37,850 nucleotides of DNA from a virus. This document shows, one piece after another, positions 3,639 to 32,907 of the stretch. The stretch is from UHGV virus genome UHGV-0195539; one strand, written 5' to 3'. The notes beneath the pieces were generated by a model. It had not been told where the DNA came from, ran no database searches, and saw only the letters and a program-made list of their open reading frames with translations. The position numbers and the translations under genes were made by a program. Position 1 is the first letter of the stretch, and each line of letters starts with the position of its first letter.

Positions 3639-4028
3639 ATGGATAAAGAAACGGAAATGACCACTGACACTGCCGTCAGTAACGGGGAGGCTTCCGCGGT
3701 GGCGGTTGCCGCTACGGCTGCACCTAAGAACGTGGTGAAGCTGACGGTGCCTGTTGTGCGCGGAGATGTGTCGTACAGTGAAATTAAAATCGGTCCGCTG
3801 GCGAATCAGGCCGGATCGCTGCGTGGGCTGTCTTTGCTTGCGCTTTATAATATGAACTGTGATGCCATGGTCACCTGGCTTGCGCGTGTGACAGAGCCAA
3901 AACTCAAGGAGGCCGAAATGTATGCCATGAATGTGGCGGATTTTACGGCGCTGAGCTCGGCGGCGGTTAATTTTTTCGCACCCTCGGGGTCGAATGCACC
4001 GGCACCGGAGAACACGGCAGAGCCGTAA
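3639..4028 (+). CDS. E: tail assembly chaperone E
   Basis: 129-aa ORF between tube and tape-measure genes with GGAGA SD; contains a slippery heptamer near its 3' end. Confidence 0.8.
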   Translation: MDKETEMTTDTAVSNGEASAVAVAATAAPKNVVKLTVPVVRGDVSYSEIKIGPLANQAGSLRGLSLLALYNMNCDAMVTWLARVTEPKLKEAEMYAMNVADFTALSSAAVNFFAPSGSNAPAPENTAEP

Positions 4029-4186
4029 CCTGTCTTTGCTTTGACTGCATTGAAGATCCCGTTGCGGATATTGCTGTTATTTTTAACTGGCCGCCCGCAG
4101 AGATATTTGCAATGACGCCTGCAGAGGTGGTCGCCTGGCGTGAGCGGGCGGCTGCCAGAAGCGGAAGTCACAATCATGATGAATAA
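3639..4186 (+). CDS. tail assembly chaperone E+E', predicted programmed -1 frameshift product
   Basis: Heptamer T TTT TTC at about 3971..3977 in the E frame; the -1 frame then stays open for about 70 codons to TAA at 4184..4186, overlapping the start of T. Confidence 0.5.
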
Positions 4187-6968
4187 TCTGCATATCAGGG
4201 TTGCTCTGGCGGCGGCAGACACCCTGACACAACCTCTCAGGCGCGCCCGCGAAACCGTGGGCGCGCTTTCTGATTCCCTCCGTGAAACTCAGGACTCCAT
4301 CCGCTCGCTTGAACGGCAGAGTGAAGCCTTTGCTGCGGCACAGACTAAATTTGACGAAGCCACCCGGAAAATTGCCGCTGTTCAGCAGCAACTGAACCGT
4401 CTGCAGCAGGCGGAGCGTGAGGGTACCGTGCTCAGTGAACGGCAGCGTGAAATGATGGCTTCGCTGACCACCCGGCTTGAACGTCTGAACCGGGTGAGGG
4501 ATGTACATCAGCGACGCCTGGAGGATTCACGCCGGGAGCTGGAGAGACACGGTATTGCCGCAGAGGGCAGCAGTCAGACCATACAGGCAGCCATTCGCCG
4601 GACGGCAGAGTATAACGAAGAGCTGGCGCGACAGCGGCAGGCGCTCGCACAGGTGACCCGTGCACAGCAACGCTATGAACAGGCGCAGGAGCGACTCGGG
4701 CGGATACGTAATGCCGGTGCGGCGGCACTGGCTGCCGGTGCAGCAGGACTTTACGCTGGCGGGCGTGCTGTTGCGCCGGTGATGGATCTCCAGCGTCATG
4801 GTGCCGTCATTGCGGCTCAGGCAGGAGAGGGCGCGTCAGATGCCGTGGGGTATACCGGGGTTATAAACCACATGGTTCATACCGGTATCACACCGGATGC
4901 ACAACTGGCGGCTGAAGCTGTGGGTGCTGTCCGCTCCACTCTGGGTGGGCTGGGGGCGGTTAGTGAGAATGAACTGACCCGAATCACCCGAAAAATGCTG
5001 GATATGCAGGCCGTGATGGGGGGCGATATCCCGCAGCACATTCAGGCGGCTGCCATCATGATCAAAAACGGTCTTGCACGCAGCAGTGACGAGGCGGTTG
5101 ATCTGATGGTGGCGGGCATGCAGCGCATGGGGCCGGTTATGCGCGATGAGCTGCCTGAGATCCTTCACGAGTATTCGACCCATTTTCGTAACATGGGGCT
5201 GACAGGGTCGGAAACCATGACGCTCCTTGCGGATATGGCGCAGCAGGGGAAGTTTGCGCTGGATAAAACCGGCGATGCCATCAAGGAGTTCAGTATTCGC
5301 GGCTCCGATATGTCAAAGGCGAGTGCTGAAGCGTATGCGCTTATCGGGCTGGATGCAGCCAGGATGTCATCGGCTGTAGCCAGTGGTGGAACGGCTGCAC
5401 GGGCTGCGCTGCAGAAAACAGCCTCGGGTCTGTTGCAGATCGTCGATCCGGCTGAGCGGGCCAATGCGGCCATCGCACTTTTTGGTACACCGGTTGAAGA
5501 TCTGTCTGTCGATCAAATCCCTGCCTTTCTTGGCGCGCTGGCGCGGGTGTCTGACCGTATGGCTGACGTGTCTGGTGTGGCGGACCGGATGGGGCAAACC
5601 CTGCGTGACAATCTGAGTGGTGATGTGGCGCGGCTTACCGGGACGTTCAGCGCGCTGAGAAGTGGGATTATCGGGGAGATTACGGACGATCTGCGTGGGC
5701 TTGTCCGGATGGCCACAGCGTGGGGTGAGCGTCTGCAGGCGTGGGTGAATGCGCATCCGGAACTGGTGCGAATGATTGCGCTGACGACGGGAGCGGTGCT
5801 GGCGTTAACCACAGCGATGGGGGCGTTGTCCGTTGCGGCCTGGATGGTTGTCGCACCGTTACTGAAACTGCGTCTGGGGCTTGCCCTGCTTCGCGCGATC
5901 CCGGCCGGACTCTCTGTTGCCGGTACGCTGTTTGGCGGACTGACGGGTGTGATTTCAGCCGTGGGGGCTGCGCTGGGGGCGCTGACCTGGCCGGTTGTGG
6001 TGGCGGTGGGAGCCCTGGTCGGTGGTGCTCTGCTGATCTGGCGCTACTGGGATCGGGTCAGGGCGTTTGTGAGCGGATTTATTGAAGGGGTACAGTCAGC
6101 ACTGGCGCCCTTCATGGCGACAGCCTCCCGTTTTGCGCCGCTGCTGGATCTGGTTTCAGGGGCACTGTCCCGTATTCTGGGATGGTTTAAATCCCTGTTA
6201 ACGCCAGTCTCCTCCACGCGTGATTTGCTTGAGCAGTGCACCTCTGCCGGGCAGACGTTCGGGAGCTCTCTGGCCGGTGCGTTAGCCACGGTTTTTTCGC
6301 CCCTGAAAGCTCTGATTGACGGTCTGGCGTGGGTGCTGGAAAAACTCGGTGTTCTGCCCGGTGAAGCTGAGCGGGTTAAGCGAAAACTGGATGAGGCCCG
6401 TAAAACGCCGGTGGCATGGGAGTGGGATCCGGAACAGAAAAAAATGGTTCAGAAGGCGTGGCACTGGTCGCCTCCTGGTGGGGCCAGTGTGCCTTCCGGC
6501 GCCTCCGGTACACAGCCTCCGCCGGTGGCGCTCCCTGCGGGGATAGCGCCGGACGGTAACCGTAACGTTCTCCGTCACCTGAAAGGCATTGAGGGGAATA
6601 CCGGTGGTCTGCTGGCTGAAAACCGTAAACGTATCGGACCCGGAGATATTGTGTTTAAACATCTTCCACGGGCGCTGGCGGTCCGGGGGCAGTGGCATGA
6701 ACCTGTCGTTGCGCCGTCTTCCGGCGGAATGCGCGCGCTGCCACAGGAGGAGATTCAGGTGCAGCAATGGCCGACGGCACGCCCGGCGCCACGAATGCAC
6801 CAGCAGGAAACCTTCGCCAGCGCCTTTCAGGGGGAGATACATGTGCATCTTCACGGGGTGAGTTCGCATAATCCCCGGGAACTGGCGCGCATGGTTGGTG
6901 ACGCTGTCAGGGCGGAAATGAACAGAATGGCACGTGCCGGAACCGGCAGCTTCCGCGATCGCGACTGA
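4140..6968 (+). CDS. T: tail tape measure protein T
   Basis: 942-aa ORF with coiled-coil N-terminal region, central Ala/Gly-rich hydrophobic segments and P2 tail gene position. GTG start with GAGGTG SD; ATG at 4176 is an alternative. Confidence 0.85.
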   Translation: MSGRLPEAEVTIMMNNLHIRVALAAADTLTQPLRRARETVGALSDSLRETQDSIRSLERQSEAFAAAQTKFDEATRKIAAVQQQLNRLQQAEREGTVLSERQREMMASLTTRLERLNRVRDVHQRRLEDSRRELERHGIAAEGSSQTIQAAIRRTAEYNEELARQRQALAQVTRAQQRYEQAQERLGRIRNAGAAALAAGAAGLYAGGRAVAPVMDLQRHGAVIAAQAGEGASDAVGYTGVINHMVHTGITPDAQLAAEAVGAVRSTLGGLGAVSENELTRITRKMLDMQAVMGGDIPQHIQAAAIMIKNGLARSSDEAVDLMVAGMQRMGPVMRDELPEILHEYSTHFRNMGLTGSETMTLLADMAQQGKFALDKTGDAIKEFSIRGSDMSKASAEAYALIGLDAARMSSAVASGGTAARAALQKTASGLLQIVDPAERANAAIALFGTPVEDLSVDQIPAFLGALARVSDRMADVSGVADRMGQTLRDNLSGDVARLTGTFSALRSGIIGEITDDLRGLVRMATAWGERLQAWVNAHPELVRMIALTTGAVLALTTAMGALSVAAWMVVAPLLKLRLGLALLRAIPAGLSVAGTLFGGLTGVISAVGAALGALTWPVVVAVGALVGGALLIWRYWDRVRAFVSGFIEGVQSALAPFMATASRFAPLLDLVSGALSRILGWFKSLLTPVSSTRDLLEQCTSAGQTFGSSLAGALATVFSPLKALIDGLAWVLEKLGVLPGEAERVKRKLDEARKTPVAWEWDPEQKKMVQKAWHWSPPGGASVPSGASGTQPPPVALPAGIAPDGNRNVLRHLKGIEGNTGGLLAENRKRIGPGDIVFKHLPRALAVRGQWHEPVVAPSSGGMRALPQEEIQVQQWPTARPAPRMHQQETFASAFQGEIHVHLHGVSSHNPRELARMVGDAVRAEMNRMARAGTGSFRDRD

Positions 6969-13289: not shown

Positions 13290-15335
13290 TTATGCGGCGT
13301 TGCTGTTATTGATATCCACCGTCACATACTCAATCAGCACGGGGTAGGTGTCCTTGTTACTGGTGATATCCGTGATCAGCAGTTTGTCGTTATCCAGTCC
13401 TGCCGCCGGGCATTTCGCCAGATTAAAGGCCGCCTGGGTCTGACCGTTGATGACCGGTGTCACGCTGATGCTGTTATTTCCGGCAAACCGGAACACCACG
13501 TTGTGCCAGTTATGATTAAATGCCCCGAAGGTTCCCAGTTTTGCATTCTGTTGTTTGTGCTGCATCAGATTCAGGTTTGCGCTGTCGCTCTGGATGAAGA
13601 AGGCGGCCAGCATATCGTTTCCTGCGCTGCCTTCCAGAACAACGTTTTCAGGTAGCTGAGAAACCGGCCAGTGCAGAGCCATGGCGAAGCGGTTTTCTGC
13701 CAGCTGAACACCTTCCGGGATTTTGAAACGAAAGGCAATTTCCCCGCCTTTCTGAAGTAATTCAGCTGCTTTACTTGCAGGCACATCGTGGGCGATTTTC
13801 CAGGCTGTTTGTTGCCCCTGGACTTTTTCCACTCGCATGGCTTTACCGCTCTGAGCAGCAGAGTCATTTACGACGGAGGCTTTTCCATCTGCCCCTGTCC
13901 AGCCCTGTTCTTTCAGTTTCCCTTCCTGTGCGTCTGCGCGATAAGCGACGGCCGTTGTTCTTGCCGGTGATGACTGCGTACCTGCGCCCGGCTGAGGTGC
14001 AGGTGTGTAGGGCTGCGGGCTTTCCGTGGTGGTGCTGTCTGAACCGGCCGTGGCGGGAGGTACTGCGACCACGCTGAACGGTGCGGGTGCACCTTTCAGG
14101 AAGGCGACGGTCTTCCCGGCATGCATCAGGATCGCCGTTGCCAGGCGGTCAGAAATAATGCCGCGGCGGGCCCATGAACTGAAATGCGTGGCGCGATCTG
14201 AAGAGGTCCAGTTTCCGTTACTACGGGATGCAGCACCGTAATAACCGGCTTCTGCCAGGTCAGGATCTTCGGCAGGCAGGTTTGTTGGCGTGTTAGCACC
14301 TTTCTCATCGGTCATCAGGGGCACAAAATAAATTTTTTGCGCTTCTTTGTTCTGATATGCACCGTAAACCACCGGGTACTGAGAGGTATATTGTTGTTTC
14401 CAGATATAGGTGGTATCGCCGCAAATCCAGGGAACAAGTGATGCGTTGCCTCCGGTGCACTGTGCAGCATATGCGCTGAGATCGGCGCGGAACTGATTCA
14501 CCATGTTCAGGAATAATTGCGGGTGCTGTGCGTATGTTGCTGATTTCAGATCAAACTCTCCCAGCATCCAGACCACGGATAACAGGACGTTTTTGGGGTT
14601 TTTATCCAGCGCGGCTTTTGTACGGGTAAGCAGATCGTTATACAGCGGTTTGCCGACGCCCCACAGGGATGATTCGGCCGTTGCTCCTGAAGATTCACTG
14701 AATGCCCCCTCAGCGCCGGAAGTAAGCGCTGACCCTCCACGACAGCAAGGTACCAGGAGGATCCCTGCATTTTTCGGGATAAACGCCAGTAATTTTTTGG
14801 CAATATGTAAACCCTGTCCGACGCAGCCATACTGACCTTTTGACAGATCGGCGTTCGGATGATTAAGGCTGCTCATATCCTGTACATCATGGAGACAGTG
14901 ATCTGCCGGAATAATATCGTTATAGGTACATGCAGCGCCGCCCGGTGTTACCGTACTGCGACGCGCTAACTGTTTAATTCGTGGATCAGGACTGTCGAAT
15001 GTATCGGGTAATGGCAGCCCCTCACCGTATGCCATGCCATTGGACTGACCAGCCAGTGGCACCACATAATAAAACTCTGGCTCAGTTGTGTGTCCAGTGT
15101 CGTATCCGTCGGTAGTGCCCGGTACGGGGTTTTCCTCGCCTTTTGGTACCGGAATGGCTGATGGCAGGTCTCTGTCAGTGACCAGTGCCTGCATCAGGTA
15201 AAATGGTGCTCCCGGCTCTGATGCTGAGACAGGTCCCCCAAGAAGTCCCCATCCTTCCCTGAGCATGGGCGCAAGTTTTTCGGCAAGTTCCTTGTTCGTC
15301 ATTGCCGTCACAAGCTGATAATGTTTCGGTACCAT
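13290..15335 (-). CDS. NanS-p-like sialate O-acetylesterase (SASA/SGNH-type esterase domain) with N- and C-terminal extensions
   Basis: GQSNG motif (PLAGQSNGMAYGEG) characteristic of SASA 9-O-acetylesterases; N-terminal YQLVTAMT...GW region resembles the DUF1737 domain of Stx-phage NanS-p. Start moved to second Met for GGAG SD. Confidence 0.7.
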   Translation of the reverse strand: MVPKHYQLVTAMTNKELAEKLAPMLREGWGLLGGPVSASEPGAPFYLMQALVTDRDLPSAIPVPKGEENPVPGTTDGYDTGHTTEPEFYYVVPLAGQSNGMAYGEGLPLPDTFDSPDPRIKQLARRSTVTPGGAACTYNDIIPADHCLHDVQDMSSLNHPNADLSKGQYGCVGQGLHIAKKLLAFIPKNAGILLVPCCRGGSALTSGAEGAFSESSGATAESSLWGVGKPLYNDLLTRTKAALDKNPKNVLLSVVWMLGEFDLKSATYAQHPQLFLNMVNQFRADLSAYAAQCTGGNASLVPWICGDTTYIWKQQYTSQYPVVYGAYQNKEAQKIYFVPLMTDEKGANTPTNLPAEDPDLAEAGYYGAASRSNGNWTSSDRATHFSSWARRGIISDRLATAILMHAGKTVAFLKGAPAPFSVVAVPPATAGSDSTTTESPQPYTPAPQPGAGTQSSPARTTAVAYRADAQEGKLKEQGWTGADGKASVVNDSAAQSGKAMRVEKVQGQQTAWKIAHDVPASKAAELLQKGGEIAFRFKIPEGVQLAENRFAMALHWPVSQLPENVVLEGSAGNDMLAAFFIQSDSANLNLMQHKQQNAKLGTFGAFNHNWHNVVFRFAGNNSISVTPVINGQTQAAFNLAKCPAAGLDNDKLLITDITSNKDTYPVLIEYVTVDINNSNAA

Positions 15336-15345
15336 AGTGACTCCG

Positions 15346-15621
15346 TTATTTTTCATGAGTGTTCATTCGTGCTGTCCGCTGCCGCTCCAGCCCGGCAATG
15401 GCGGCTTTATCGGCATTACAACTGTCCAGGGCATCTACCAGTCGGTCTCCCCAGTCAGCCACATCAGCCCATATCATGTGTTGCGGCAGCACCGGTACCG
15501 GTGTCTGTCTGGTCAGACTTTCCGGCACGCTCCCGCAAATGACGCCGGTTTTCAGCGGCGCTGGCGTGTTGTTGCAGGCTGTCAGCAACATCAGCAGGGG
15601 GAGAAGTGCGTGCGCACTCAT
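15346..15621 (-). CDS. o-spanin (Rz1/LysC-like outer-membrane lipoprotein)
   Basis: Signal peptide with lipobox LTAC (MSAHALLPLLMLLTAC); reading frame overlaps the 3' end of the i-spanin gene and extends past it. Confidence 0.6.
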   Translation of the reverse strand: MSAHALLPLLMLLTACNNTPAPLKTGVICGSVPESLTRQTPVPVLPQHMIWADVADWGDRLVDALDSCNADKAAIAGLERQRTARMNTHEK

Positions 15622-20293: not shown

Positions 20294-20365
20294 GGAAATT
20301 CTCCATAACCTGGTCGTTTTTCCCATGATGGCGGCAGATAACGGTGTGTCTCAAGGTGCTTAAGT

Positions 20366-20383
20366 TGTATGGCGACGGGGACA
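20366..20383. promoter_or_regulatory. candidate Ogr-dependent late promoter box (TGT-N12-ACA) in the divergent O/P intergenic region
   Basis: Exact TGT-atggcgacgggg-ACA read from the sequence, centred about 55 nt upstream of a plausible start site for P. Confidence 0.4.
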
Positions 20384-20448
20384 ACGCGGGCTGGTATCAG
20401 GCGGTATTGCTGAGGCTTAATCTTGCCCTGTTAATGTCAGGGGGTGCA

Positions 20449-22182
20449 ATGATCCAGGATGTCTTTATTCGTATGCGGGCGAAACAGCTTTACTGGCAGG
20501 GGTATACCCCGGCGGATATCGCTCAGCTGATGGGAATAAACCAGAACACGATTTATTCGTGGAAAAAACGCGATGAGTGGGATGCCACTCCCCCGATCCA
20601 GCGGGTCACCCAGTCCATTGATGCACGCCTGATACAGCTCACCGCCAAACCGGATAAAAGCGGCGGTGACTTTAAGGAAATTGACCTGCTGACGCGCCAG
20701 CTGAAAAAACTGAATGACGGTCAGGGAGAACAGGCTGTTTCCGGTAAGAAGCCCCGCAGGCGCAAACTGAAAAATCACTTCACCGAAGAGCAGATTGTCG
20801 CACTCAGGGAAAAAATCCTGCCGTCACTGGCCTGGCATCAGCGCGAATGGTACGACAACCGCCATCACCGCAACCGCATGATCCTGAAGTCGCGTCAGAT
20901 TGGTGCGACCTGGTATTTTGCGCGCGAAGCACTCCTTGATGCACTGCGTGATGATGTCTCCGCCGGGTACCAGCGCAACCAGATATTTTTGTCCGCATCC
21001 CGTCGCCAGGCGTATCAGTTCAAACACTTTATTCAGCAGGCGGCGCTGGAAGTTGATGTCGAACTGAAAGGGGGTGACAAGATTGTTTTGTCTAACGGTG
21101 CAGAGCTTCACTTCCTTGGCACATCGGCAGCAACCGCTCAGTCGTATACCGGACACCTTAAATTTGATGAATTTTTCTGGGTCAGTAACTTTGTGGAACT
21201 CAGGAAGGTTGCTGGGGCAATGGCGACACTGGAAGGGCTTACGCGAACCTACTTTTCAACACCGTCAGGTGAAACACATGAGGCGTATCAGTTCTGGACG
21301 GGGGACCGCTGGAACAGCGAACAGCCACGCTCAAAACGCAGTGAGTTTGATGTTTCACATGCGCATCTGAAGGGGGGCGTGCTCTTTCCTGACGAAACAT
21401 GGCGGCAGATTGTCACTATTGAGGATGCTGTCGCTAACGGATGGCGGTACACCAATATTGGTGTTATTCGCGGCGAAAATACAGAAAGTGAATTTCGTAA
21501 TCTGTACATGTGCGAATTTGTCCGTGATGGTGAGGCAGCCTTCAGCCTGAGTGCGCTCACCGGCTGCGGTGTTGACGGCTATGACGAATGGCCTGACTGG
21601 AAACCTTTTGCTGCCCGCCCTATGGGGGTGAGGGAGGTCTGGCTTGGGTATGACGCCAACGGCAGCAGCGGGAAGGGGGACTGCGGGGCACTGTCGGTGT
21701 GCGTGCCGCCCCTTGTTGCCGGTGGGCGTTTTCGCACGGTGGAAACTGTCAGGGTTCAGGGGATGGAGTTTGAACAGCAGGCCGCACTGATTGAGGAATA
21801 CACCCAAAAATATAACGTGAAACATATCGGCATTGATGTGACCGGCGGGAACGGGGAGGGGGTTTATCAGATTGTGAAAAAGTTTTTCCCGATGGCCGTA
21901 CCGTACAACTTCAATATCGCCTCCAAGCGGGCACTGGTCATGAAAATGCTTCAGGTGGTGCGTGCCGGACGCTGGGAGTATGACCGCAGTGAACGTGACC
22001 TGATCCAGGCATTCGCATCGGTGCGAAAAATACAGACACCCGGCGGCTATATCACCTACGACACCGACCGCTCCCGTGGCGTCAGCCATGGTGACCTCGC
22101 CTGGGCAACCATGCTTGCTGTTATCAATGAGCCAATTGGTGCGGAGCGTGAGGATAATCGCGGCTTTGCAATGGAGTTCTGA
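20449..22182 (+). CDS. P: terminase ATPase (large) subunit P
   Basis: LYWQGYTPADIAQ and IYSWKKR in the N-terminal domain; ATPase and nuclease regions throughout; ATG with AGGGGG SD. Confidence 0.9.
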   Translation: MIQDVFIRMRAKQLYWQGYTPADIAQLMGINQNTIYSWKKRDEWDATPPIQRVTQSIDARLIQLTAKPDKSGGDFKEIDLLTRQLKKLNDGQGEQAVSGKKPRRRKLKNHFTEEQIVALREKILPSLAWHQREWYDNRHHRNRMILKSRQIGATWYFAREALLDALRDDVSAGYQRNQIFLSASRRQAYQFKHFIQQAALEVDVELKGGDKIVLSNGAELHFLGTSAATAQSYTGHLKFDEFFWVSNFVELRKVAGAMATLEGLTRTYFSTPSGETHEAYQFWTGDRWNSEQPRSKRSEFDVSHAHLKGGVLFPDETWRQIVTIEDAVANGWRYTNIGVIRGENTESEFRNLYMCEFVRDGEAAFSLSALTGCGVDGYDEWPDWKPFAARPMGVREVWLGYDANGSSGKGDCGALSVCVPPLVAGGRFRTVETVRVQGMEFEQQAALIEEYTQKYNVKHIGIDVTGGNGEGVYQIVKKFFPMAVPYNFNIASKRALVMKMLQVVRAGRWEYDRSERDLIQAFASVRKIQTPGGYITYDTDRSRGVSHGDLAWATMLAVINEPIGAEREDNRGFAMEF

Positions 22183-22187
22183 ACACA

Positions 22188-23231
22188 ATGAGTAAACGCA
22201 AAAAATACACCGGAAAGCGGGGGCAGGATTCGCTACACGATGCACTGAAATCAACGCCTGCACTCAGCGCATTCACCTTTGATGGGCCCTATGAAGTCAG
22301 CCACATGGATCTCCTGGATAACATGTCATGTGCAGATAACGGGCGCTACTTTGATACCCCCATGGACTGGAACGCTATCGCCCGTGCATCCCGTCGTGCG
22401 TCCTGGCATCAGTCGGCTTTGTACTTCAAGCGCAACGCCCTGAACGGGTGCTTTGTTCCTCACCCTCTGCTGTCCCGCCAGGCGTTTTCAGCCTTTGCGC
22501 TCGACTGGTTTGTGTTTGGTAATGCCTATCTTGAAGTGCGGCGTAACAGGCTGGGGGAACCACTCCTGCTTCGCCCGGCACTGGCAAAATATACACGCAG
22601 GGGAAGTGACCTGGATACCTACTGGTATCTCAACGACGACGGTACGGAGTTCAGTTTCAGGAAAGGGACTGTGTGCCACGTGCTTAATCCTGATATTAAT
22701 CAGGAGATCTACGGGATGCCGGAATATATCGGCGGGTTGCTGTCTGTCAGCCTGTCAAACTCAGCGGATACATTCCGCAAGCTCTACTACGATAACGGCT
22801 CGCATGCCGGGTGTATTATCTATGTAGGCACACCTCAGGCGAATGCGGAAAGTGTCGAGGCCATTAAAAAAACGCTTACGGATTCCCGTGGTCGCGGGGC
22901 GTTTAAAAACCTGTTTCTTCATGCGCCGGGTGGTGGCAAGGATGGTGTGCAAATACTGCCGTTCCAGCAGATAACCGCAAAGGATGAATTCCTGAACATC
23001 AAGGGGAGCGCCCGCGACGATATCCTTGCTGCCCATCGTGTACCACCTCAACTGATGGGGGCAATGCCTGACGGGAATGCGGCGTTTGGTGACGTTGAGA
23101 AAGCGGCGAGGGTGTTTTTCATCAACGAGTTGCAACCTGTCATGGAGGCCATGAAGCATGTCAATGAATGGCTTGGCGTTGAGGTGATGCGCTTTAACCC
23201 CTATGCCCTGCTTCTGGATAACGCCAGCTGA
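22188..23231 (+). CDS. Q: portal protein Q
   Basis: 347-aa ORF immediately after the large terminase gene, P2 gpQ-like in size and position. Confidence 0.9.
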   Translation: MSKRKKYTGKRGQDSLHDALKSTPALSAFTFDGPYEVSHMDLLDNMSCADNGRYFDTPMDWNAIARASRRASWHQSALYFKRNALNGCFVPHPLLSRQAFSAFALDWFVFGNAYLEVRRNRLGEPLLLRPALAKYTRRGSDLDTYWYLNDDGTEFSFRKGTVCHVLNPDINQEIYGMPEYIGGLLSVSLSNSADTFRKLYYDNGSHAGCIIYVGTPQANAESVEAIKKTLTDSRGRGAFKNLFLHAPGGGKDGVQILPFQQITAKDEFLNIKGSARDDILAAHRVPPQLMGAMPDGNAAFGDVEKAARVFFINELQPVMEAMKHVNEWLGVEVMRFNPYALLLDNAS

Positions 23232-23258
23232 CGCGCTTCGCTTGTCTGCTGCTTCGCC

Positions 23259-23281
23259 GGGGCATAAAAAATTTATGCCCC
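23259..23281. terminator. bidirectional hairpin between converging portal gene and orphan gene
   Basis: Inverted repeat GGGGCATAAA-AAA-TTTATGCCCC seen directly. Confidence 0.45.
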
Positions 23282-23296
23282 GACTCTCCAGCTCTC

Positions 23297-23800
23297 TTAA
23301 CGGAATGCGGATGGCGTTCTTCTTTGCAGCTTGCTGATAATATGCATCTTCATACTGTTTACTATCGGCAGCCATTCCCTGTCACCGTCTCCGTTGATGA
23401 CCACGCGAATGGAGGTATCATCTTCCACGCGAACCCGAAGAGATACACCGTCTTTTCCGACGGAATGTAACTCCATTGCCAGGACTATGTTTACCGACTC
23501 TCCTTCATCGTGTGAGTCAACCCATGTTCTTACAGCCATCCGGAATATGTTATCTGTGTCGGTTGCAATCATATTTACCGGAAATGGCCTGAAGTCCCGA
23601 TCGTTTCTGCACGGAAACCCCGTATCAACGTAACGATGATGCTCGCCGTCTTTGTCTTCCCATGTCTCTGAAGGCAATTCCAGCCACTGCTCATAAAAAG
23701 CAACCAGCTTTTCAGCCTGATTGCGCAGAATCCCTGTAACCTCCCGCCTCGCGTCCCGGCTCTTTTTGTTTGCCAGGTACAAATCGCGAAAATGGCTCAT
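23297..23800 (-). CDS. hypothetical protein (orphan cargo gene, 167 aa)
   Basis: Clean ORF with its own upstream intergenic region, converging on Q; no family recognised from sequence. Confidence 0.55.
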   Translation of the reverse strand: MSHFRDLYLANKKSRDARREVTGILRNQAEKLVAFYEQWLELPSETWEDKDGEHHRYVDTGFPCRNDRDFRPFPVNMIATDTDNIFRMAVRTWVDSHDEGESVNIVLAMELHSVGKDGVSLRVRVEDDTSIRVVINGDGDREWLPIVNSMKMHIISKLQRRTPSAFR

Positions 23801-24336
23801 GTCGCTCTCCTTTGGTCTGTTTATGCCAGCCTGTATTCTGCGCTCACCTCATATTGTGCGCAAGTTTTCACCCGTGAATGACTGATACTTTAAATTCTAT
23901 TAACTTTATGATTTCAGTGATTTTTGTCTCTCTTTTTTATCCCGTTCGTCACGTCCGTTTCCCTCCCGATCTCCGACCTCGCCAGACGCAATCAGACGCA
24001 TTCTGACGGCCTGTTTCCCTGACCATGTTTTGATGTGGTTTTTCAAAACTGACTTTACTGCGTGCGTATCACGCGCCATACGACCCCAAATAAAGCAACC
24101 CGCCTTCCATCCCTCAATTCGGGCGCCCTTCCCTCGTCGCCTGCGCGCTGCAATTGCCTCGTTTTTCGTGCACCGTGCAAACCGGCCTCAGCCAGCGCCG
24201 TTACCGGGCGGAATGGGGAAAAAGTACATTAGAAAAATTGTGCAATTTCGTGCGCTTTTGTGCAGTTTTGATCTTGCGATTTTTTGTGGCAGGTGGTGAT
24301 GATATTCATCTGTCTGAATCAGTGGGAGACTGCCGG

Positions 24337-24882
24337 GTGAGAACTGTGAAAAATTACTCATATCCTTATTTAACTTTTGTCACGCTTTCTGTTTTGGGGG
24401 GGATTTTTCTTTTTATTTGGTGGCGAAACGATGTTTACAGAATTACCTACCTTTATTCGTTCACGACAAACTGCCTTGTTTCAGTGTCTGTGGTGCTTTC
24501 GGTTTTTGTCTCACTGTGCCTGTTGAAAAAGAACCTGGTTGATCGGTCTAAATTTACCGGGGTTACATCGTATCTTAAGTTTTTTTCGGGTATGTGCCTT
24601 CTTACCTGGATGATTCTGTTTACCCTCCTGGTTACGCTGATATATTTTCTTCCGGGTGAAGATTCATTCTATTCCGCTCCCTATGAGTACAGTCGCGGTA
24701 GCTCAAAAAGTTGTTCAGGGGCATTTGTTGATGATCCTGATTTGCAAAAAACAATATTTATTTGCTACCCATACGGTGACTATCAGGATGGTAATGTGAT
24801 TTATGTGAAGAAGCGTGTGAATGCGCTGGGGGCGGTGGTCACCTATGCATACGCGACAAGCGGCCGATTTCGGTTTGACTGA
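24337..24882 (+). CDS. hypothetical multi-pass membrane protein with C-terminal soluble domain (about 181 aa)
   Basis: About three hydrophobic helices then a 75-aa Tyr/Gly-rich tail. Visibly AT-rich relative to neighbours. Track ORF begins at an upstream TTG; GTG with GGGAG SD preferred, start uncertain. Confidence 0.5.
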   Translation: MRTVKNYSYPYLTFVTLSVLGGIFLFIWWRNDVYRITYLYSFTTNCLVSVSVVLSVFVSLCLLKKNLVDRSKFTGVTSYLKFFSGMCLLTWMILFTLLVTLIYFLPGEDSFYSAPYEYSRGSSKSCSGAFVDDPDLQKTIFICYPYGDYQDGNVIYVKKRVNALGAVVTYAYATSGRFRFD

Positions 24883-24897
24883 AAAAAGAAATCCTGT

Positions 24898-24921
24898 GTT
24901 ACCCTCGCTGCTGAGGGTAAC
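24898..24921 (-). terminator. rho-independent terminator closing the replication operon
   Basis: Perfect 9-bp inverted repeat GTTACCCTC-GCTGCT-GAGGGTAAC followed on the minus strand by a T-rich run. Confidence 0.55.
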
Positions 24922-24931
24922 ATGCGTGAAG

Positions 24932-25249
24932 TCATCGCCCGGTTCTTGAGCTGATAATGCTTTGCGCCAGCAACTGCCAGCCCTCTTTCTGTTGCCCGTA
25001 CTTGTCCTGATACCTGTTTACCTGCAAGTTTCCGTGCACCAGAATCAGATCGCCTTTTCTGTGTTTTGCCAGTTCTTCGTGCTGCTTCCCGAATGCAATA
25101 AGGTAAAGCCACATTGTGGTTGGCTGTTCTGCGCCATGGCAGGGTAGTGATACCGCCAGTTGTGCCGTTGTGACGTTGGTTCCTTTGGTTGTTCTCCTTG
25201 TGTTCGGGTCTGCTGCCAGTCGTCCCTCTGTTGCAACCTGTGTTGGCAT
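24932..25249 (-). CDS. SSB-like OB-fold protein (short, no C-terminal tail)
   Basis: Pattern aligns with the SSB OB-fold (e.g. WLYLIAFGKQHEELAKHRKGDLILVHGNLQVNRYQDK versus [36 protein letters not shown]); GGGAGA SD. Confidence 0.65.
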   Translation of the reverse strand: MPTQVATEGRLAADPNTRRTTKGTNVTTAQLAVSLPCHGAEQPTTMWLYLIAFGKQHEELAKHRKGDLILVHGNLQVNRYQDKYGQQKEGWQLLAQSIISSRTGR

Positions 25250-25281
25250 ATTTGTCTCCCGTGTTGGTTTTATTGTTGGGG

Positions 25282-25620
25282 TTAGATGACTGGCAGCTCT
25301 TCGCCAGCGCCGTAGATAAACAGAATTCGCTTCATGATTTCGCTGCGCTTGCAGGCTTCAATTACGGACGGCTCTTGTTGCCATTCTGCCCGTTGCGCCA
25401 GCTCCAGTCGTTCCTTTTCCGTTAGCTTCCGGTAATGCGTTATCTTGTCCGTGTACCCGTCCACAACCAGCAGCCCTTCGCGTACCATCTTCCCGGCGGC
25501 CTGATTAATGATGGTCCTTTTCACGCCCAGTTTTTCAACCAGCTCTGGTGCGCTGAAGCGTGCGTGCGTTTCCAGGTAGCGTAAAATGATTACCTTTCCG
25601 GTCATTCTGGGTGTCTTCAT
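25282..25620 (-). CDS. winged-helix DNA-binding protein (putative regulator)
   Basis: HTH-like segment FSAPELVEKLGVKRTIINQAAGKMVREGLL; ATGA overlap with the upstream gene stop. Confidence 0.55.
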   Translation of the reverse strand: MKTPRMTGKVIILRYLETHARFSAPELVEKLGVKRTIINQAAGKMVREGLLVVDGYTDKITHYRKLTEKERLELAQRAEWQQEPSVIEACKRSEIMKRILFIYGAGEELPVI

Positions 25621-25787
25621 TTGGCGGCTCCTTCGTTGTTCCGGCGTTCGCGGAGTTCGGTCAGTGCTGCCAGTAAATTTTCCCACCATGTTTCTTCCAC
25701 AACCGGATTTCGTCGTGAAAGCAGCTGCTGCGCCGACTCAATCATTTTCGTAAGCTCTTTGTCGCTGATCCTCCTGATGTCGTTCAT
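25617..25787 (-). CDS. hypothetical small protein (56 aa)
   Basis: Internal ATG with AAGGAG SD at 7-nt spacing. Confidence 0.45.
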   Translation of the reverse strand: MNDIRRISDKELTKMIESAQQLLSRRNPVVEETWWENLLAALTELRERRNNEGAAK

Positions 25788-25835: not shown

Positions 25836-26240
25836 TTACCTGCGTGATTGCCTGCTGGCGGCCGAATGCACATAGCGGACAATTGCCGCTTTTCGGTTAA
25901 CGACGGCCAGCGTTCTTGCCAGTTCTTCGTTGAGTTTTCTGGTCTGTTTTTCGTGGTATGCCTGCATGATTTTTCCTACGGGAGTCAGTGGTTCAGGCTC
26001 TGATATGGCGCGACGAGGGCGCACGGCAACGATGAATGCGCTTCTGTCGGTGTTGATTCTTGCAGTCAGGATGTCGGTCATAACGGTGTCTGTGCTGCGA
26101 TCGGGACTGGCGATCGTGATTTCCAGTTCGTCGCCTGGCTGCGGTCGAACACTGACGCCGCTCAGTGTCAGTGCCGGAATGCGTGCGTTCATGATGGTGC
26201 TGAAATCATGGCGCTGGAGTACGCAATGGAATCGTGTCAT
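25836..26240 (-). CDS. hypothetical protein (134 aa)
   Basis: ATGA overlap with the replication gene stop; GGAGG SD. Confidence 0.55.
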   Translation of the reverse strand: MTRFHCVLQRHDFSTIMNARIPALTLSGVSVRPQPGDELEITIASPDRSTDTVMTDILTARINTDRSAFIVAVRPRRAISEPEPLTPVGKIMQAYHEKQTRKLNEELARTLAVVNRKAAIVRYVHSAASRQSRR

Positions 26241-28750
26241 GGGTTAACCTCCGGTTGATCTGCTGCCACCAGGCTTCGTGATTTTTCATCCCAGTGCACA
26301 ATCCGCCCGTCAGGCAGGCGAACGCGTGCACCTCTGTGTACGGAAAGTGCTGCGCCACTGTGTAGCTCCTCGCCCGTCGTGCTCAGTGCCGACTTGATCA
26401 CGGTGGTGGTGACGTCAGTCAGTGGCAATGCTGTACGTACATGTATGACGTCATCGGGCGTGGTGGAGCCGCCGGTTTTCACGGTTTTTGTGTCAGATGG
26501 CGCATCTTTCAGCTGCCTGGTGAGTTGTTTTCTCTCTGTGGGGGTCAGTGACCTTAACCATTCGCTCAAATCACCTTCCGGGATGGTCAGTTTTTGTTCT
26601 TTCCTGGTTTCCGGTGGTGGGGTTTTCCCCTCTCCGGTGTCTGTTTTTTCATCATGGGGACAGTTATTGCCACGAGTCCAAGGTGCGGCAAAGCCGCACT
26701 CAACGTCAAAACCCTCGTCCGTGCTGTTGTCGGCTTTCGCTTCTTTTCTGACCAGTTTCCACTCGTCCGGATGGGTACAGATGGTGTAGCGCTCGCCGAG
26801 CGACGGGGCGCAAATTCCGTAGATGCGCTGCGGGAATTCGCCGTAGTCGTTGGCCTCATCTGCGGTTTCGTATGCGGTGCGGACCAGGTACGCGTTGCGG
26901 GGAATGAGCACGCCACCCTGGCGGGTGATGTAGGTGGCAAAACACCCCACGTCAGCAGCGGCCAGAATGGCGTCAATGTCGTCATGATCCAGGCGCTTCG
27001 GTGATGCCGGGTTGCGCTCCATCTGTCCGGCAAGGCGGCGTAGTTCACGCCACACCTGGCGGGGCGGGATGCCGAAGAACTGGAACTGACGGATGCGATG
27101 GAGACTCGCCCAGGCAATGGCGTTTTCCACGGTTTCGGCCATGGTTTTCCCTGATTCCTCATCGGCGTAAGGTTTGCCGGTTTTCGGGTCATTGTCGTGA
27201 AAGGCGCTGGCGTCCAGGTTCTTGCCGATATAGGTTGCGATGTAACTTGCCGGTGTGCCTTTTGCCGGGTCGATTTTTTCGCACTTGAAGCGCGGCGAAA
27301 TATCATCCCCCAGTTCTGCGCGATCTGATTTGACTGCCGCGTCACGCATGATTGCAATGATGCGTTCTTCATTGTCCGGGGAGGTGAATACCAGCATGTG
27401 CCAGTGCGGTGTGCCGTCATGGTGTGGCTCAACGGTGCGCACCCCGTACCAGCTCAGGCCTTCTTTGTTGAGTTTTTTTCTTACAGCTGCAAAGACGTCG
27501 TACACCAGATAATCGCTGGCATCGCGCACGGTGGCACCGTTGTATTTCGGGTTCAGGCTGCCGTCCTCGTTTACGCTGTGAAAGCGGGAAGGGCAGGTCA
27601 CTGTCACGAAGAACGCGGAGTCACCACGCGATTCGGCGACCTGTTCCATCCCTCTGACGCAGGCCATCATCTCGTTGCGGCGGTTGCGCGGATTCCCCAG
27701 CCCTGACCAGTACACGTCCTCCAGGCTCAGGCGTTCACCGTCTTCGTTTTCAATGTCCCAGCTTTTGAGAAAATCACGGGTGCGCTGGCGTTTCTCCCGG
27801 AATTCCTGGAGTGACTCATGGCTGATGTAGGGGGATGCCTTGCGCGATACTCTTCCGGCGGCACGCAGTAATTCCTCCCGCCAGAGATCGGCGAGGTGGC
27901 GCAGCTGGTTGTTCCACCAGGTGGCGCAGGTGATGCGCATTACTGCACCCGGTACCCGTTCAGGGTCTGGTGCCGTGCGGCGGTCACGTCTGAGCTCGAG
28001 TGACGGCCAGCATGGTGGGGTCACGCCCAGTTTTAACGCCATGCGCGCCAGCTGCTGGTAAGTCAGCAACCAGGTAAACAGGTTATCGTCGCCTTTTCCT
28101 GTCCGCTCAGTAACTTCATCACATATGCGTTCCAGTTCGGTGGAAAATGCCGCCGCTGTTAGTGTGGCAAGGCGCTGAATTTGATCACGGTTGAGTTGTG
28201 GCAGCATGAGTAATTCATCAAGGCGATGGCGTGCTGCGGTGGCTTTGAATGCCGTCGTGGCGAAGCATTCATTCACCTGTTCGATGCGTTTCAGGCGTGT
28301 GCGCAGTCCACGGCGAACAAAGTTATCAGCCACGTGTGTATTGTTGTTTTTCACGCCTTCATGGCGGGCGCTTTGCTGTTTGCGGTTTAAACGCGCCAGA
28401 TCACGAATGAGCGCGTTGCCAAGAAACGAGGGCAGGGCGCGAAGTTCTGCCATGGCTTCCGATACCACTGTGGGCGGATTTTCGCGTTTGTGTCTCGCCA
28501 GTTTTTCCAGTCTGATCCGGCGCTCTTCGTCGTGGTGAAGATGCGAATTAATTCGCTTGCCTTCGTCTGTGTTTGTCAGGAAGTCGACGGTCTCTTCATC
28601 CAGTCTTGCATCAATGCGAATGTCTTCGTTGATGTAGCTCTGAATGGCCTGGCGTAATGCGGTTGGTTGCGCTCTGCCGAACGTTTCAGGATCGATAACC
28701 GGTAGCGGGGCGTTCCACGGGTACGCCAGTTGTGCGTTATGGTCGCTCAT
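26237..28750 (-). CDS. A: replication initiation endonuclease A (rolling-circle, HUH type)
   Basis: HWHMLVF HUH-type motif and large size match P2 gpA; ATG with GGGGAG SD, ATGA overlap with upstream gene. Confidence 0.9.
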   Translation of the reverse strand: MSDHNAQLAYPWNAPLPVIDPETFGRAQPTALRQAIQSYINEDIRIDARLDEETVDFLTNTDEGKRINSHLHHDEERRIRLEKLARHKRENPPTVVSEAMAELRALPSFLGNALIRDLARLNRKQQSARHEGVKNNNTHVADNFVRRGLRTRLKRIEQVNECFATTAFKATAARHRLDELLMLPQLNRDQIQRLATLTAAAFSTELERICDEVTERTGKGDDNLFTWLLTYQQLARMALKLGVTPPCWPSLELRRDRRTAPDPERVPGAVMRITCATWWNNQLRHLADLWREELLRAAGRVSRKASPYISHESLQEFREKRQRTRDFLKSWDIENEDGERLSLEDVYWSGLGNPRNRRNEMMACVRGMEQVAESRGDSAFFVTVTCPSRFHSVNEDGSLNPKYNGATVRDASDYLVYDVFAAVRKKLNKEGLSWYGVRTVEPHHDGTPHWHMLVFTSPDNEERIIAIMRDAAVKSDRAELGDDISPRFKCEKIDPAKGTPASYIATYIGKNLDASAFHDNDPKTGKPYADEESGKTMAETVENAIAWASLHRIRQFQFFGIPPRQVWRELRRLAGQMERNPASPKRLDHDDIDAILAAADVGCFATYITRQGGVLIPRNAYLVRTAYETADEANDYGEFPQRIYGICAPSLGERYTICTHPDEWKLVRKEAKADNSTDEGFDVECGFAAPWTRGNNCPHDEKTDTGEGKTPPPETRKEQKLTIPEGDLSEWLRSLTPTERKQLTRQLKDAPSDTKTVKTGGSTTPDDVIHVRTALPLTDVTTTVIKSALSTTGEELHSGAALSVHRGARVRLPDGRIVHWDEKSRSLVAADQPEVNP

Positions 28751-29163
28751 GCGTCGCACTCCCCGGCAGTCGCCGCCTGAAACGCCGCGCGGTACAGCAT
28801 GAGAAGGCGCTGGTATTCGCCGATAAAACCTTCTGCGGTGTATATACCTTTCACGGCCACGCTGTGGTTTGTCATTTCCAGAACCAGCGCCATCTCTGAT
28901 GACGACCAGCTGATGGTGGTGCTGTCGGTGCCGTTGATGTGAAATAAACCCAGTCCATCACCATCACCTTTCACGTCCACGCGGTAACGACCGTCAACGG
29001 TGAAGGAGAAATCCCCGGATGTGGTGATGCTGCGGGCAGCCTGTTTACAGGCGCGGCGGTAATAGTCGTGCCAGTCGTTCAGGCGGGAAGCCAGCCGGGG
29101 ATCCACTGCCCACATCCAGTTAAAAAAATCCTGAATATCTGAAAGTCCCTTAACGCTCTTCAT
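28747..29163 (-). CDS. hypothetical early protein (138 aa)
   Basis: GGAGG SD; ATGA overlap with A start. Confidence 0.55.
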   Translation of the reverse strand: MKSVKGLSDIQDFFNWMWAVDPRLASRLNDWHDYYRRACKQAARSITTSGDFSFTVDGRYRVDVKGDGDGLGLFHINGTDSTTISWSSSEMALVLEMTNHSVAVKGIYTAEGFIGEYQRLLMLYRAAFQAATAGECDA

Positions 29164-31117: not shown

Positions 31118-32092
31118 TCACGGGTGAGCAGAGGTAAACATCGCGCTGTACGTTGCATCTCCCGTCGCCGGGCCGCAGTCCGGGCACCAGCCACCGCCAT
31201 GGCGACCGCAGGTGTCGCACTGCTTCAGGGTGGCGATAACTTCCATTGCGGGTTCACTGGTTCTTGCGCCAACGCTTCGTGGTGCCTGTATGCAGTTCAT
31301 CCGGTAACCCTGATAAATGCGTCTGGTTTCCGGTGTGTCGGAATTGGAGATGGTGATGCTGGTCATGCCGCCCGTTTCCTGTGAAAGGCGGTCAAGCGCT
31401 GCTCTCAGGCGAATGTGGTCGTCCTTCGTGAAGGGTTTTCCATAGGCGGTGAAATTGTCCCGGCCACTGAATGGCAGGTAAGGGGGATCGCAGTACACGC
31501 AAAGCGTGTTACCCATGCTGAACAGGTGGCTGGCACAGCTCAGCGTTTTTCGAAAATCGCCATGAACAAGCAGTGTTCGGGTGCTGTTTGCCTTGTCTGC
31601 AAATGCGCGGATCTCCCGCTCAGGAAAATAAGGTTTGCTGTAGCTGCCGAAAGGCACGTTAAAATCGCCTTTTCCATTCACGCGGAACAGGCCGTTAAAA
31701 CAGTGTCGGTTGAGGTACAAAAACATGGCGGCCAGTCGCAGTTTCCGACGGTCGCTTATTCCCGTGCTCAGGAATGCATGATTCTCTGCATTAAAGGTGT
31801 TGCGGATGGCGAGATAGTCAGCCCTGTTGTTATGTTCCAGGAACAGGTCTTTTGCCTCATCGATCAGGCTGTCGGTGTTGTCCCGTGCTGCCCGCCAGAA
31901 ATTAATCAGCGCACCGTTGGAATCTCCAAGGATGCAGCGGCTGTAACGGGTGTTCATGAATACCGATGCGCCACCCACGAACGGCTCAACCAGGCAGTCA
32001 GCTTCTGGCAGGTGCGCCTTCAGTGTGTCCATGATGCGGTTTTTTCCGCCCACCCATTTCAGCGGTGTGCCGGATAACAGTTTTTCGCTCAT
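31118..32092 (-). CDS. dam: DNA adenine methyltransferase (Dam-like) with C-terminal Cys-rich zinc-ribbon-like tail
   Basis: DPPY catalytic motif (VYCDPPY) and GG...VFMN SAM-binding region; C-terminal CDTCGRHGGGWCPDCG. Confidence 0.85.
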   Translation of the reverse strand: MSEKLLSGTPLKWVGGKNRIMDTLKAHLPEADCLVEPFVGGASVFMNTRYSRCILGDSNGALINFWRAARDNTDSLIDEAKDLFLEHNNRADYLAIRNTFNAENHAFLSTGISDRRKLRLAAMFLYLNRHCFNGLFRVNGKGDFNVPFGSYSKPYFPEREIRAFADKANSTRTLLVHGDFRKTLSCASHLFSMGNTLCVYCDPPYLPFSGRDNFTAYGKPFTKDDHIRLRAALDRLSQETGGMTSITISNSDTPETRRIYQGYRMNCIQAPRSVGARTSEPAMEVIATLKQCDTCGRHGGGWCPDCGPATGDATYSAMFTSAHP

Positions 32093-32325: not shown

Positions 32326-32907
32326 TCATATGTTCAGGAATGGTGTTGTGAAGCGCTGCCAGATTTCTGACACGATCTTTGCCTGGTAAATGGCGTCGCT
32401 TAGTGCGGTGTGAGCAATGGCCTCTTTTCCTGATCTGCCTGGCATTTTCCAGCCCGTTGACTCAGCCATGGCGATAAGCGGGCGCATACAGCGCTCGTTC
32501 CAGTAGCACCACGGAATGCTTTTTTCTCCGGCTGTGCGTGTTATGGCGGATTTCAGGATCGGGAAATCGAAGGATGCGCCCTTGCACCATATGGTCAGTG
32601 AATTGCCCGGGCTTTCGTCATGCATGTTGCGTGAAATGAACGCCAGAAATTCGGTCACAGCTGCAAGCTCTGTTCCCTTTGCGTTGCGCAGGCAGGCTCT
32701 GGCTTCCACGGATTGTCCGGCCCACCATACAGTGGTTGCTGCATTGACGGTTCCGCCGTTGCGTTCTGAATCCACCGGGTCGATGAATTGCTCAAACTGC
32801 TTGCCCAGCTTTCCGGTGAACGGGTCGAAAAACACCGCGCCAATTGCGAATATGACGGCATCCGGTCCGGAGCCCAGTGTTTCAGTGTCAATCATGAGGT
32901 GGTTCAT
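32326..32907 (-). CDS. 3'-5' exonuclease (DEDD/DnaQ-like)
   Basis: N-terminal MIDTETLG exo I motif and distal H...D motif. Confidence 0.75.
   Translation of the reverse strand: MNHLMIDTETLGSGPDAVIFAIGAVFFDPFTGKLGKQFEQFIDPVDSERNGGTVNAATTVWWAGQSVEARACLRNAKGTELAAVTEFLAFISRNMHDESPGNSLTIWCKGASFDFPILKSAITRTAGEKSIPWCYWNERCMRPLIAMAESTGWKMPGRSGKEAIAHTALSDAIYQAKIVSEIWQRFTTPFLNI

Follow-up and report, generated by a model that had tools for sequence, protein, structure and literature searches.

A candidate phage-conflict gene of the PHROG 5091 family between the portal gene and cos of a P2-like Escherichia coli prophage

In P2-like phages, the interval between the replication gene A and the portal gene Q has been described as moron position 1 (Wiles 2013, PMC3573123) and as a cos-proximal defence hotspot (Rousset et al. 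2022, PMC9122126). The hotspot was re-examined in 2026 across thousands of P2-like prophages (PMC13586616). Many hotspot genes without known function have proved to be defensive (PMC9122126, PMC13586616). [quoted passage not shown] The hotspot also carries cytolethal distending toxin and partition systems (PMC9122126), and the morons of P2-like phages include fitness genes that are not involved in defence (PMC3573123). Gene content near cosL is reported to vary in the P2-like phages of Ralstonia as well (PMC5694545).

The DNA analysed here, referred to as the window, is a stretch of 37,850 nucleotides (UHGV virus genome UHGV-0195539). It represents a P2-like E. coli prophage of the P88/Xuanwuvirus type (Peduoviridae), with approximately 80% nucleotide identity to P88 across the portal region. 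Positions 23200-24950 are 99-100% identical to six complete E. coli chromosomes. The gene of interest (23297-23800, minus strand) encodes a protein of 167 amino acids, and is situated between the replication gene A (26237-28759, minus strand) and the portal gene Q (22188-23231, plus strand; PF04860, E 2.4e-18), the latter preceded by the gene P for the terminase large subunit (20344-22182, plus strand). As Q is encoded on the plus strand and the 167-aa gene on the minus strand, the two genes converge. About 400 bp separate the 167-aa gene from a cos-like junction, and cos together with a plus strand gene cuts it off from the other minus strand genes. A first-pass annotation, made from the sequence alone, had placed the gene between Q and cos, in agreement with these coordinates. 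The GC content of the gene (48-49%) is mildly atypical compared to the core genes P and Q (52-55%). The membrane-protein gene beside it has a GC content of 39-41% and is clearly atypical.

Among the closest described counterparts are the old and tin genes of P2 and the A-Q hotspot in general. Like them, the 167-aa gene lies in the A-Q interval next to cos, is non-essential, and is variably present. Like old and tin, it is also a probable transcription unit of its own that reads away from cos. However, old and tin are located on the A side of cos, whereas the 167-aa gene is on the Q side, and the A-side hotspot cargo swaps, whereas the 167-aa gene stays constant. Tin has no sequence relation to the 167-aa protein (hhalign probability 0.3%). 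In P2 itself, the Q side of cos holds no gene, as the first-pass annotation had pointed out: cosL is at 1-19, the terminator tQ at 160-181 and Q at 187-1221, which leaves a space of 167 bp. The novelty that this empty slot seemed to imply was overstated. The A-Q interval is the published moron position (PMC3573123) and defence hotspot (PMC9122126, PMC13586616), and other P2-like prophages carry either a homologue with 24% identity or an ogr/Delta-like gene in the Q-to-cos slot.

The homologue with 24% identity (BLASTP E 1e-10) is WP_000236495, a protein of 174 amino acids encoded by phage vB_EcoM-705R2 and by the ST131 strain EC958. Its gene occupies the same slot, is also convergent on Q, and is further found in phages 569R5 and PhiR44_2; Yersinia copies exist too. 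Among 5426 complete E. coli genomes, this type is far more common than the window type (397 versus 11 genomes). Both types together account for 408 genomes, or about 7.5%, ST131 among them. Presence is thus variable, a point on which the first-pass annotation had suggested a comparison of related prophages. The isolated phage P88_4B11 has the hairpin and cos, and lacks the 167-aa gene. The gene is dispensable for this phage type, because it is absent from P2 and P88_4B11 and occurs in only 11 of the 5426 genomes. When present, a family member is a faithful neighbour of the portal gene, which it adjoins in nearly all of 44 loci (from IMG/VR and genomes) spanning E. coli, Salmonella and Trabulsiella. 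In one exceptional locus (L005), the portal match is a fragment at a contig end about 2.7 kb away.

The two types differ in their insertion points. The window gene is located between the hairpin that follows Q and cos. In contrast, the WP_000236495 gene lies before the hairpin: in both 705R2 (3770-4447 of locus L002) and EC958 (L066), only 14 bp separate it from the stop codon of Q, and the terminator hairpin, which in 705R2 is part of a 68-bp element, comes after it. As a consequence of this placement, late P-Q transcripts would run antisense across the homologue before they meet the hairpin. The slot has also been taken by a gene of another kind. In E. coli O22:H8 strain 154 (L070), an ogr/Delta-like zinc-finger gene (2241-2504) separates the portal gene from the same hairpin element, so that the Q-to-cos slot hosts unrelated small genes.

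The 167-aa open reading frame is a real gene under purifying selection. A comparison with the 77% identical allele of other E. coli prophages (81.5% nucleotide identity) gave a dN of 0.116, a dS of 0.735 and a dN/dS ratio of 0.157. The reality of the gene is further supported by homologues of full length in more than 100 clusters, by a confident AlphaFold2 fold, and by an ATG start codon with a Shine-Dalgarno sequence (AAGGAG, 23807-23812, minus strand, read from the sequence) 6 nt before it. The selection data and the conservation of the family speak against the possibility that the frame is not a gene. Nor is it an orphan, as the first-pass annotation had called it. The PHROG 5091 HMM matches the protein over its full length (residues 1-165 versus 2-162 of the 164 profile positions, E 1e-40, 140 bits). 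The protein is identical to UniProt B7MRY5 from E. coli ED1a, and at least 1000 contigs carry its exact sequence. A search with an HMM among 1.84 billion representatives identified 111 clusters at 50% identity (44 at E <= 1e-10), nearly all of them single-domain proteins of 150-180 amino acids. All 63 aligned relatives match PHROG 5091 and no other PHROG. The motif common to the family is Y..SL.LP...W.D..G....YV, together with a conserved Thr and a conserved Lys.

PHROG 5091 is a family without an assigned function and without a Pfam or NCBIfam model. Scans of the 167-aa protein and the 63 relatives against Pfam and NCBIfam returned nothing beyond single marginal matches. A search against 5027 PADLOC (v2) defence models identified no match for the 167-aa protein or for 62 of the 63 relatives; the remaining relative had a marginal match to PDC-S26 (E 0.009). 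Literature searches by accession, UniProt identifier and PHROG identifier retrieved no paper that deals with the 167-aa protein, WP_000236495 or PHROG 5091. WP_000236495 is listed at least 167 times as "hypothetical" in the available part of Table S5 of Rousset et al., and there is no sign in the searched text of that study that it was singled out or tested. The accessions WP_000017881 and WP_135402300 were not found among the matches listed for the tables of the same study.

AlphaFold2 predicts the 167-aa protein as a single domain with high confidence (pLDDT 90.6, pTM 0.85, alignment of 63 sequences). In the model, an N-terminal helix of 37 residues (3-39) and a C-terminal helix of 20 residues (141-160) flank a five-stranded antiparallel sheet. 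A model built from an alignment of only 10 sequences had the same topology (pLDDT 77). The protein is predicted to be soluble and mildly acidic (pI 6.1; family median 5.2). With a pI of about 6, it does not qualify as a strongly acidic DNA mimic. No signal peptide, membrane segment or conserved catalytic-type residues were detected in it, and the earlier statement that it has no recognisable motif holds. A search of the PDB by sequence profile was empty, and Foldseek, run with the less confident model, found no match in the PDB or BFVD at E <= 1e-3. FP domains (PI31, Fbxo7), the actin-capping protein beta subunit and T3SS-chaperone-like alpha-beta folds are among the closest known comparisons. 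Remote homology and structure prediction, which the first-pass annotation had recommended, have thus yielded a family and a confident fold, and no functional lead. A non-enzymatic binding protein would be the most economical reading. The annotation had also named homology to a conserved packaging or head accessory protein as an outcome that would speak against an orphan accessory gene. Such homology was looked for in comparisons with Pfam, PHROG, PDB and BFVD, and none was found, neither to packaging nor to head proteins. We infer that the 167-aa product is probably not a packaging or head protein.

As stated in the first-pass annotation, the gene has its own upstream region and converges on Q at a hairpin. 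The hairpin (23258-23282) has a perfect 11-bp stem and a 3-nt loop, and is located directly 3' of the stop codon of the 167-aa gene, between the converging genes and common to both. As RNA, it has a folding energy of -24 kcal/mol on the plus strand (z -4.0) and -30.7 kcal/mol on the minus strand (z -5.6) relative to shuffled sequence. A terminator scan did not call it, because it lacks a T-run. Its position corresponds to that of the P2 terminator tQ, and the surrounding 68-bp element (23227-23294) is 98.5% identical in phage 705R2.

Signals for the expression of the 167-aa gene are less conspicuous. The promoter scan found no sigma-70 site with at least 9 of 12 matches on the minus strand for this gene. 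A weak sigma-70-like candidate (23835-23863, minus strand), with 7 of 12 matches and below the scan threshold, consists of a -35 element TTGCGC (23858-23863), a 17-nt spacer and a -10 element CAGAAT (23835-23840), which reads GAAAAT in the 77% identical allele. Just upstream of the -35 candidate, a palindrome TTCAC-GG-GTGAA (23867-23878, minus strand) is part of a 25-nt block without any change in the allele of 82% identity; speculatively, it could be a regulator site. The promoter candidate is located within this block or adjoins it. The Ogr/Delta late-promoter element TGT-N12-ACA does not occur upstream of the 167-aa gene (23800-24300). The nearest copy (20366-20383) is found upstream of P, between the divergent capsid-scaffold gene O and P. 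The P2 late promoter is expected upstream of the P gene, so that this site serves as a positive control. Judged from these sequence elements, expression would fit a promoter that is weak or needs a regulator and works apart from the late regulon.

Further sequence features were noted in the region. The conserved 400-bp spacer between the 167-aa gene and cos contains a tandem 10-mer (CAGACGCAAT / CAGACGCATT, 23983-24002), and Rfam identified no family matches in 23100-25300. Each of the two genes that read away from cos is preceded by a 12-nt motif CGGGTGA(A/G)AACT (23863-23874 and 24334-24345). The two copies have matching orientations with respect to their genes and form the inverted repeat I5 with 92% identity. 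The pair may be a shared regulatory site, or may have arisen by chance.

The P2 cos 19-mer has no copy in the window within three mismatches, and cos was therefore placed by alignment to P88-type ends. Positions 24129-24265 align with the joined ends of the linear P88_4B11 record (NC_049391) and with the matching part of 705R2. This homology to record ends, as distinct from mapped termini, suggests a cos junction at approximately 24200-24220, within a cos-like region that extends from 24149 to 24269. As candidate binding sites for terminase, several GCAC(A/G)AA-type repeats (24149-24264, with TGCAATT..GTGCA units 92 bp apart) flank the junction; their conservation extends to P88_4B11 and 705R2.

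The hairpin, the 167-aa gene, the 400-bp upstream region and cos together form a module of 1046 bp (23224-24269). This module is 84% identical in prophages with the 77% identical allele, and homology breaks off just past cos, at the outer edge 24269. The identical 167-aa gene was seen beside three different cargos across cos, namely an AT-rich membrane protein with an SSB in the window, a TumE/DUF6516 toxin-antitoxin pair in another prophage, and a DUF4760 protein with an SSB in another. The gene thus travels with the hairpin, the upstream region and cos as a 1-kb module, while the cargo past cos swaps.

The cargo of the window begins with the multi-pass membrane-protein gene (24346-24882, plus strand), which is AT-rich (39-41% GC) and replaced by other cargo in sister prophages. 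Only the C-terminal 90 amino acids of its product match a family, phrog_1416. The RefSeq start (equivalent to 24175) or a TTG codon at 24154 would make the gene cross the cos-like junction, so that the in-frame GTG at 24346 is probably the true start. Between A and cos, positions 24932-25689 (minus strand) encode a short SSB of 105 amino acids and a MarR/winged-helix protein that matches the "Ren-like exclusion protein" family (phrog_142, E 2e-28), both within the A-side accessory region. Elsewhere in the window, the early region encodes a D12-class Dam methyltransferase (31118-32092, minus strand) and a protein of the Rv2179c-like 3'-5' exoribonuclease family (32326-32907, minus strand). A gene among the late genes (13290-15356, minus strand) codes for 688 amino acids, in which DUF1737, SASA (sialate O-acetylesterase) and DUF6645 domains are recognised. 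It is another moron in this P2-like prophage, and its product resembles the NanS-p esterases of Stx prophages.

Outside the P2-like phages, distant PHROG 5091 members are found at sites that are classic for morons, and the phages concerned package their DNA with unrelated machinery. Several are found between the lambdoid antiterminator Q and the holin/lysis genes (loci L053 and L059, and CharmingMan), one follows a lysis cassette and precedes an HNH gene, others are beside Arc/Mnt/antirepressor modules, and one is inside the baseplate genes of an E217-like myovirus (Mu/E217-like). No partner gene recurs across these contexts. Some relatives are chromosomal, standing alone beside metabolic genes and unlinked to phages. 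The slot taken in L053, L059 and CharmingMan is exactly the one that is used by the lambdoid morons stx and nanS-p. However, these belong to another phage type with another expression logic, and Stx and NanS-p have no sequence relation to the 167-aa protein.

We consider that the chances are about even that the 167-aa gene stands alone as an accessory ("moron") gene and that its product takes part, through binding, in conflicts between phages or between phage and host. The gene would then be an accessory gene on the Q side of cos, within the cos-proximal A-Q hotspot. A weak or regulated promoter of its own would drive its transcription separately from the late operons under Ogr control, and transcription would stop at the hairpin that is shared with Q. 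The product would be a small, soluble, non-enzymatic alpha/beta protein that binds another protein, probably as a dimer-type helix-sheet-helix module. Its most likely role would be prophage-encoded exclusion or defence, followed by inhibition of host defence. Several observations argue against such a conflict moron: the constancy of the gene, its mild GC deviation, the lack of a good sigma-70 promoter, and the chromosomal relatives. The lack of PADLOC matches for the protein and 62 of its 63 relatives also counts against a role in conflict or defence. Moreover, late expression would be expected of the family members downstream of the lambdoid Q, and this is not typical of defence genes expressed in the lysogen. 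The gene also fits poorly with the picture of swapping cargo, in that it stays beside Q, and that two distant homologues have independently been placed on either side of the hairpin. That it is constant beside the portal gene while the neighbouring cargo swaps hints at a role intrinsic to the phage.

The latter hint is taken furthest by the idea of a packaging or head accessory tied to cos or the portal, which would, for example, modulate terminase, cos or the portal, or interfere with P4-type satellites. It would explain why the gene adjoins and converges on Q at almost every one of the 44 loci, with homologous copies in Yersinia, why it moves with cos as one conserved module, and why two distant homologues entered on either side of the same hairpin with their orientation kept. 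We nevertheless regard it as improbable. Neither P2 nor the viable P88_4B11 has the gene, and the two types are found in only 11 and 397 of the 5426 genomes; the packaging systems are unrelated in the lambdoid, Mu/E217-like and chromosomal settings of the relatives; and neither an upstream Ogr late-promoter site nor any similarity to known head or packaging proteins was found. It is very improbable that the 167-aa gene forms a two-gene system with its AT-rich neighbour on the other side of cos, which encodes the membrane protein (24346-24882, plus strand). Both genes diverge from the same 550-bp region with the CGGGTGA(A/G)AACT motif upstream of each, and six complete genomes carry both. However, the short repeat may be a chance occurrence, the module boundary at 24269 falls between the two genes, and the occurrence of the identical 167-aa gene with entirely different cargo largely refutes such a system.

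Two further alternatives keep the accessory character of the gene and change its target. The product could be a small binder that neutralises defences of the host or of a competing prophage in lytic growth or after induction. The small, acidic, single-domain, non-enzymatic and well-folded protein, as modelled with a binding-type fold, would suit this task, and the family diverges fast (24% identity at the same locus) in spite of purifying selection within a type. The gene is also fixed with the structural end of the phage while the defence cargo swaps, and the lambdoid relatives are part of the late transcript downstream of Q. Yet anti-defence genes are not usually found at late or left-end genome positions, chromosomal copies exist outside phages, and neither Foldseek nor the PDB profile search pointed to a related protein. 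We regard such counter-defence as unlikely. Lysogenic conversion, i.e. an effect on host physiology or virulence like that of neaT at the other P2 moron position, seems to us a little more doubtful. There are precedents in the non-defence fitness morons (PMC3573123) and in the cytolethal distending toxin and partition systems of the same hotspot (PMC9122126). Clinical lineages, ST131 (EC958) among them, commonly carry the homologue, and chromosomal copies are stable beside metabolic genes. Against conversion, the features that could point to a toxin or to a change of the cell surface (signal peptide, membrane segment, enzymatic motif) are absent from the protein, and there is no link to virulence loci. 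On balance, exclusion or defence appears somewhat likelier than counter-defence, host-directed conversion less likely, and a packaging accessory less likely still.

Among the conflict roles, it is also conceivable, and we propose this only tentatively, that PHROG 5091 is a family of single-protein conflict genes (exclusion or defence effectors, or immunity inhibitors) that are unrelated in fold and sequence to the described systems and have been overlooked as "hypothetical" in surveys of the hotspots. By itself, the 167-aa gene adds another hypothetical gene to a variable region that is already well documented, which leaves the view of how P2-like genomes are organised unchanged, and it is an ordinary candidate for a phage-conflict gene. 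If the family turns out to be directed against phages or against defences, the arsenal of E. coli prophages would gain a common component that is non-enzymatic and consists of a single gene, and the Q side of cos would be a stable accessory slot, distinct from the fast-swapping cargo on the A side.
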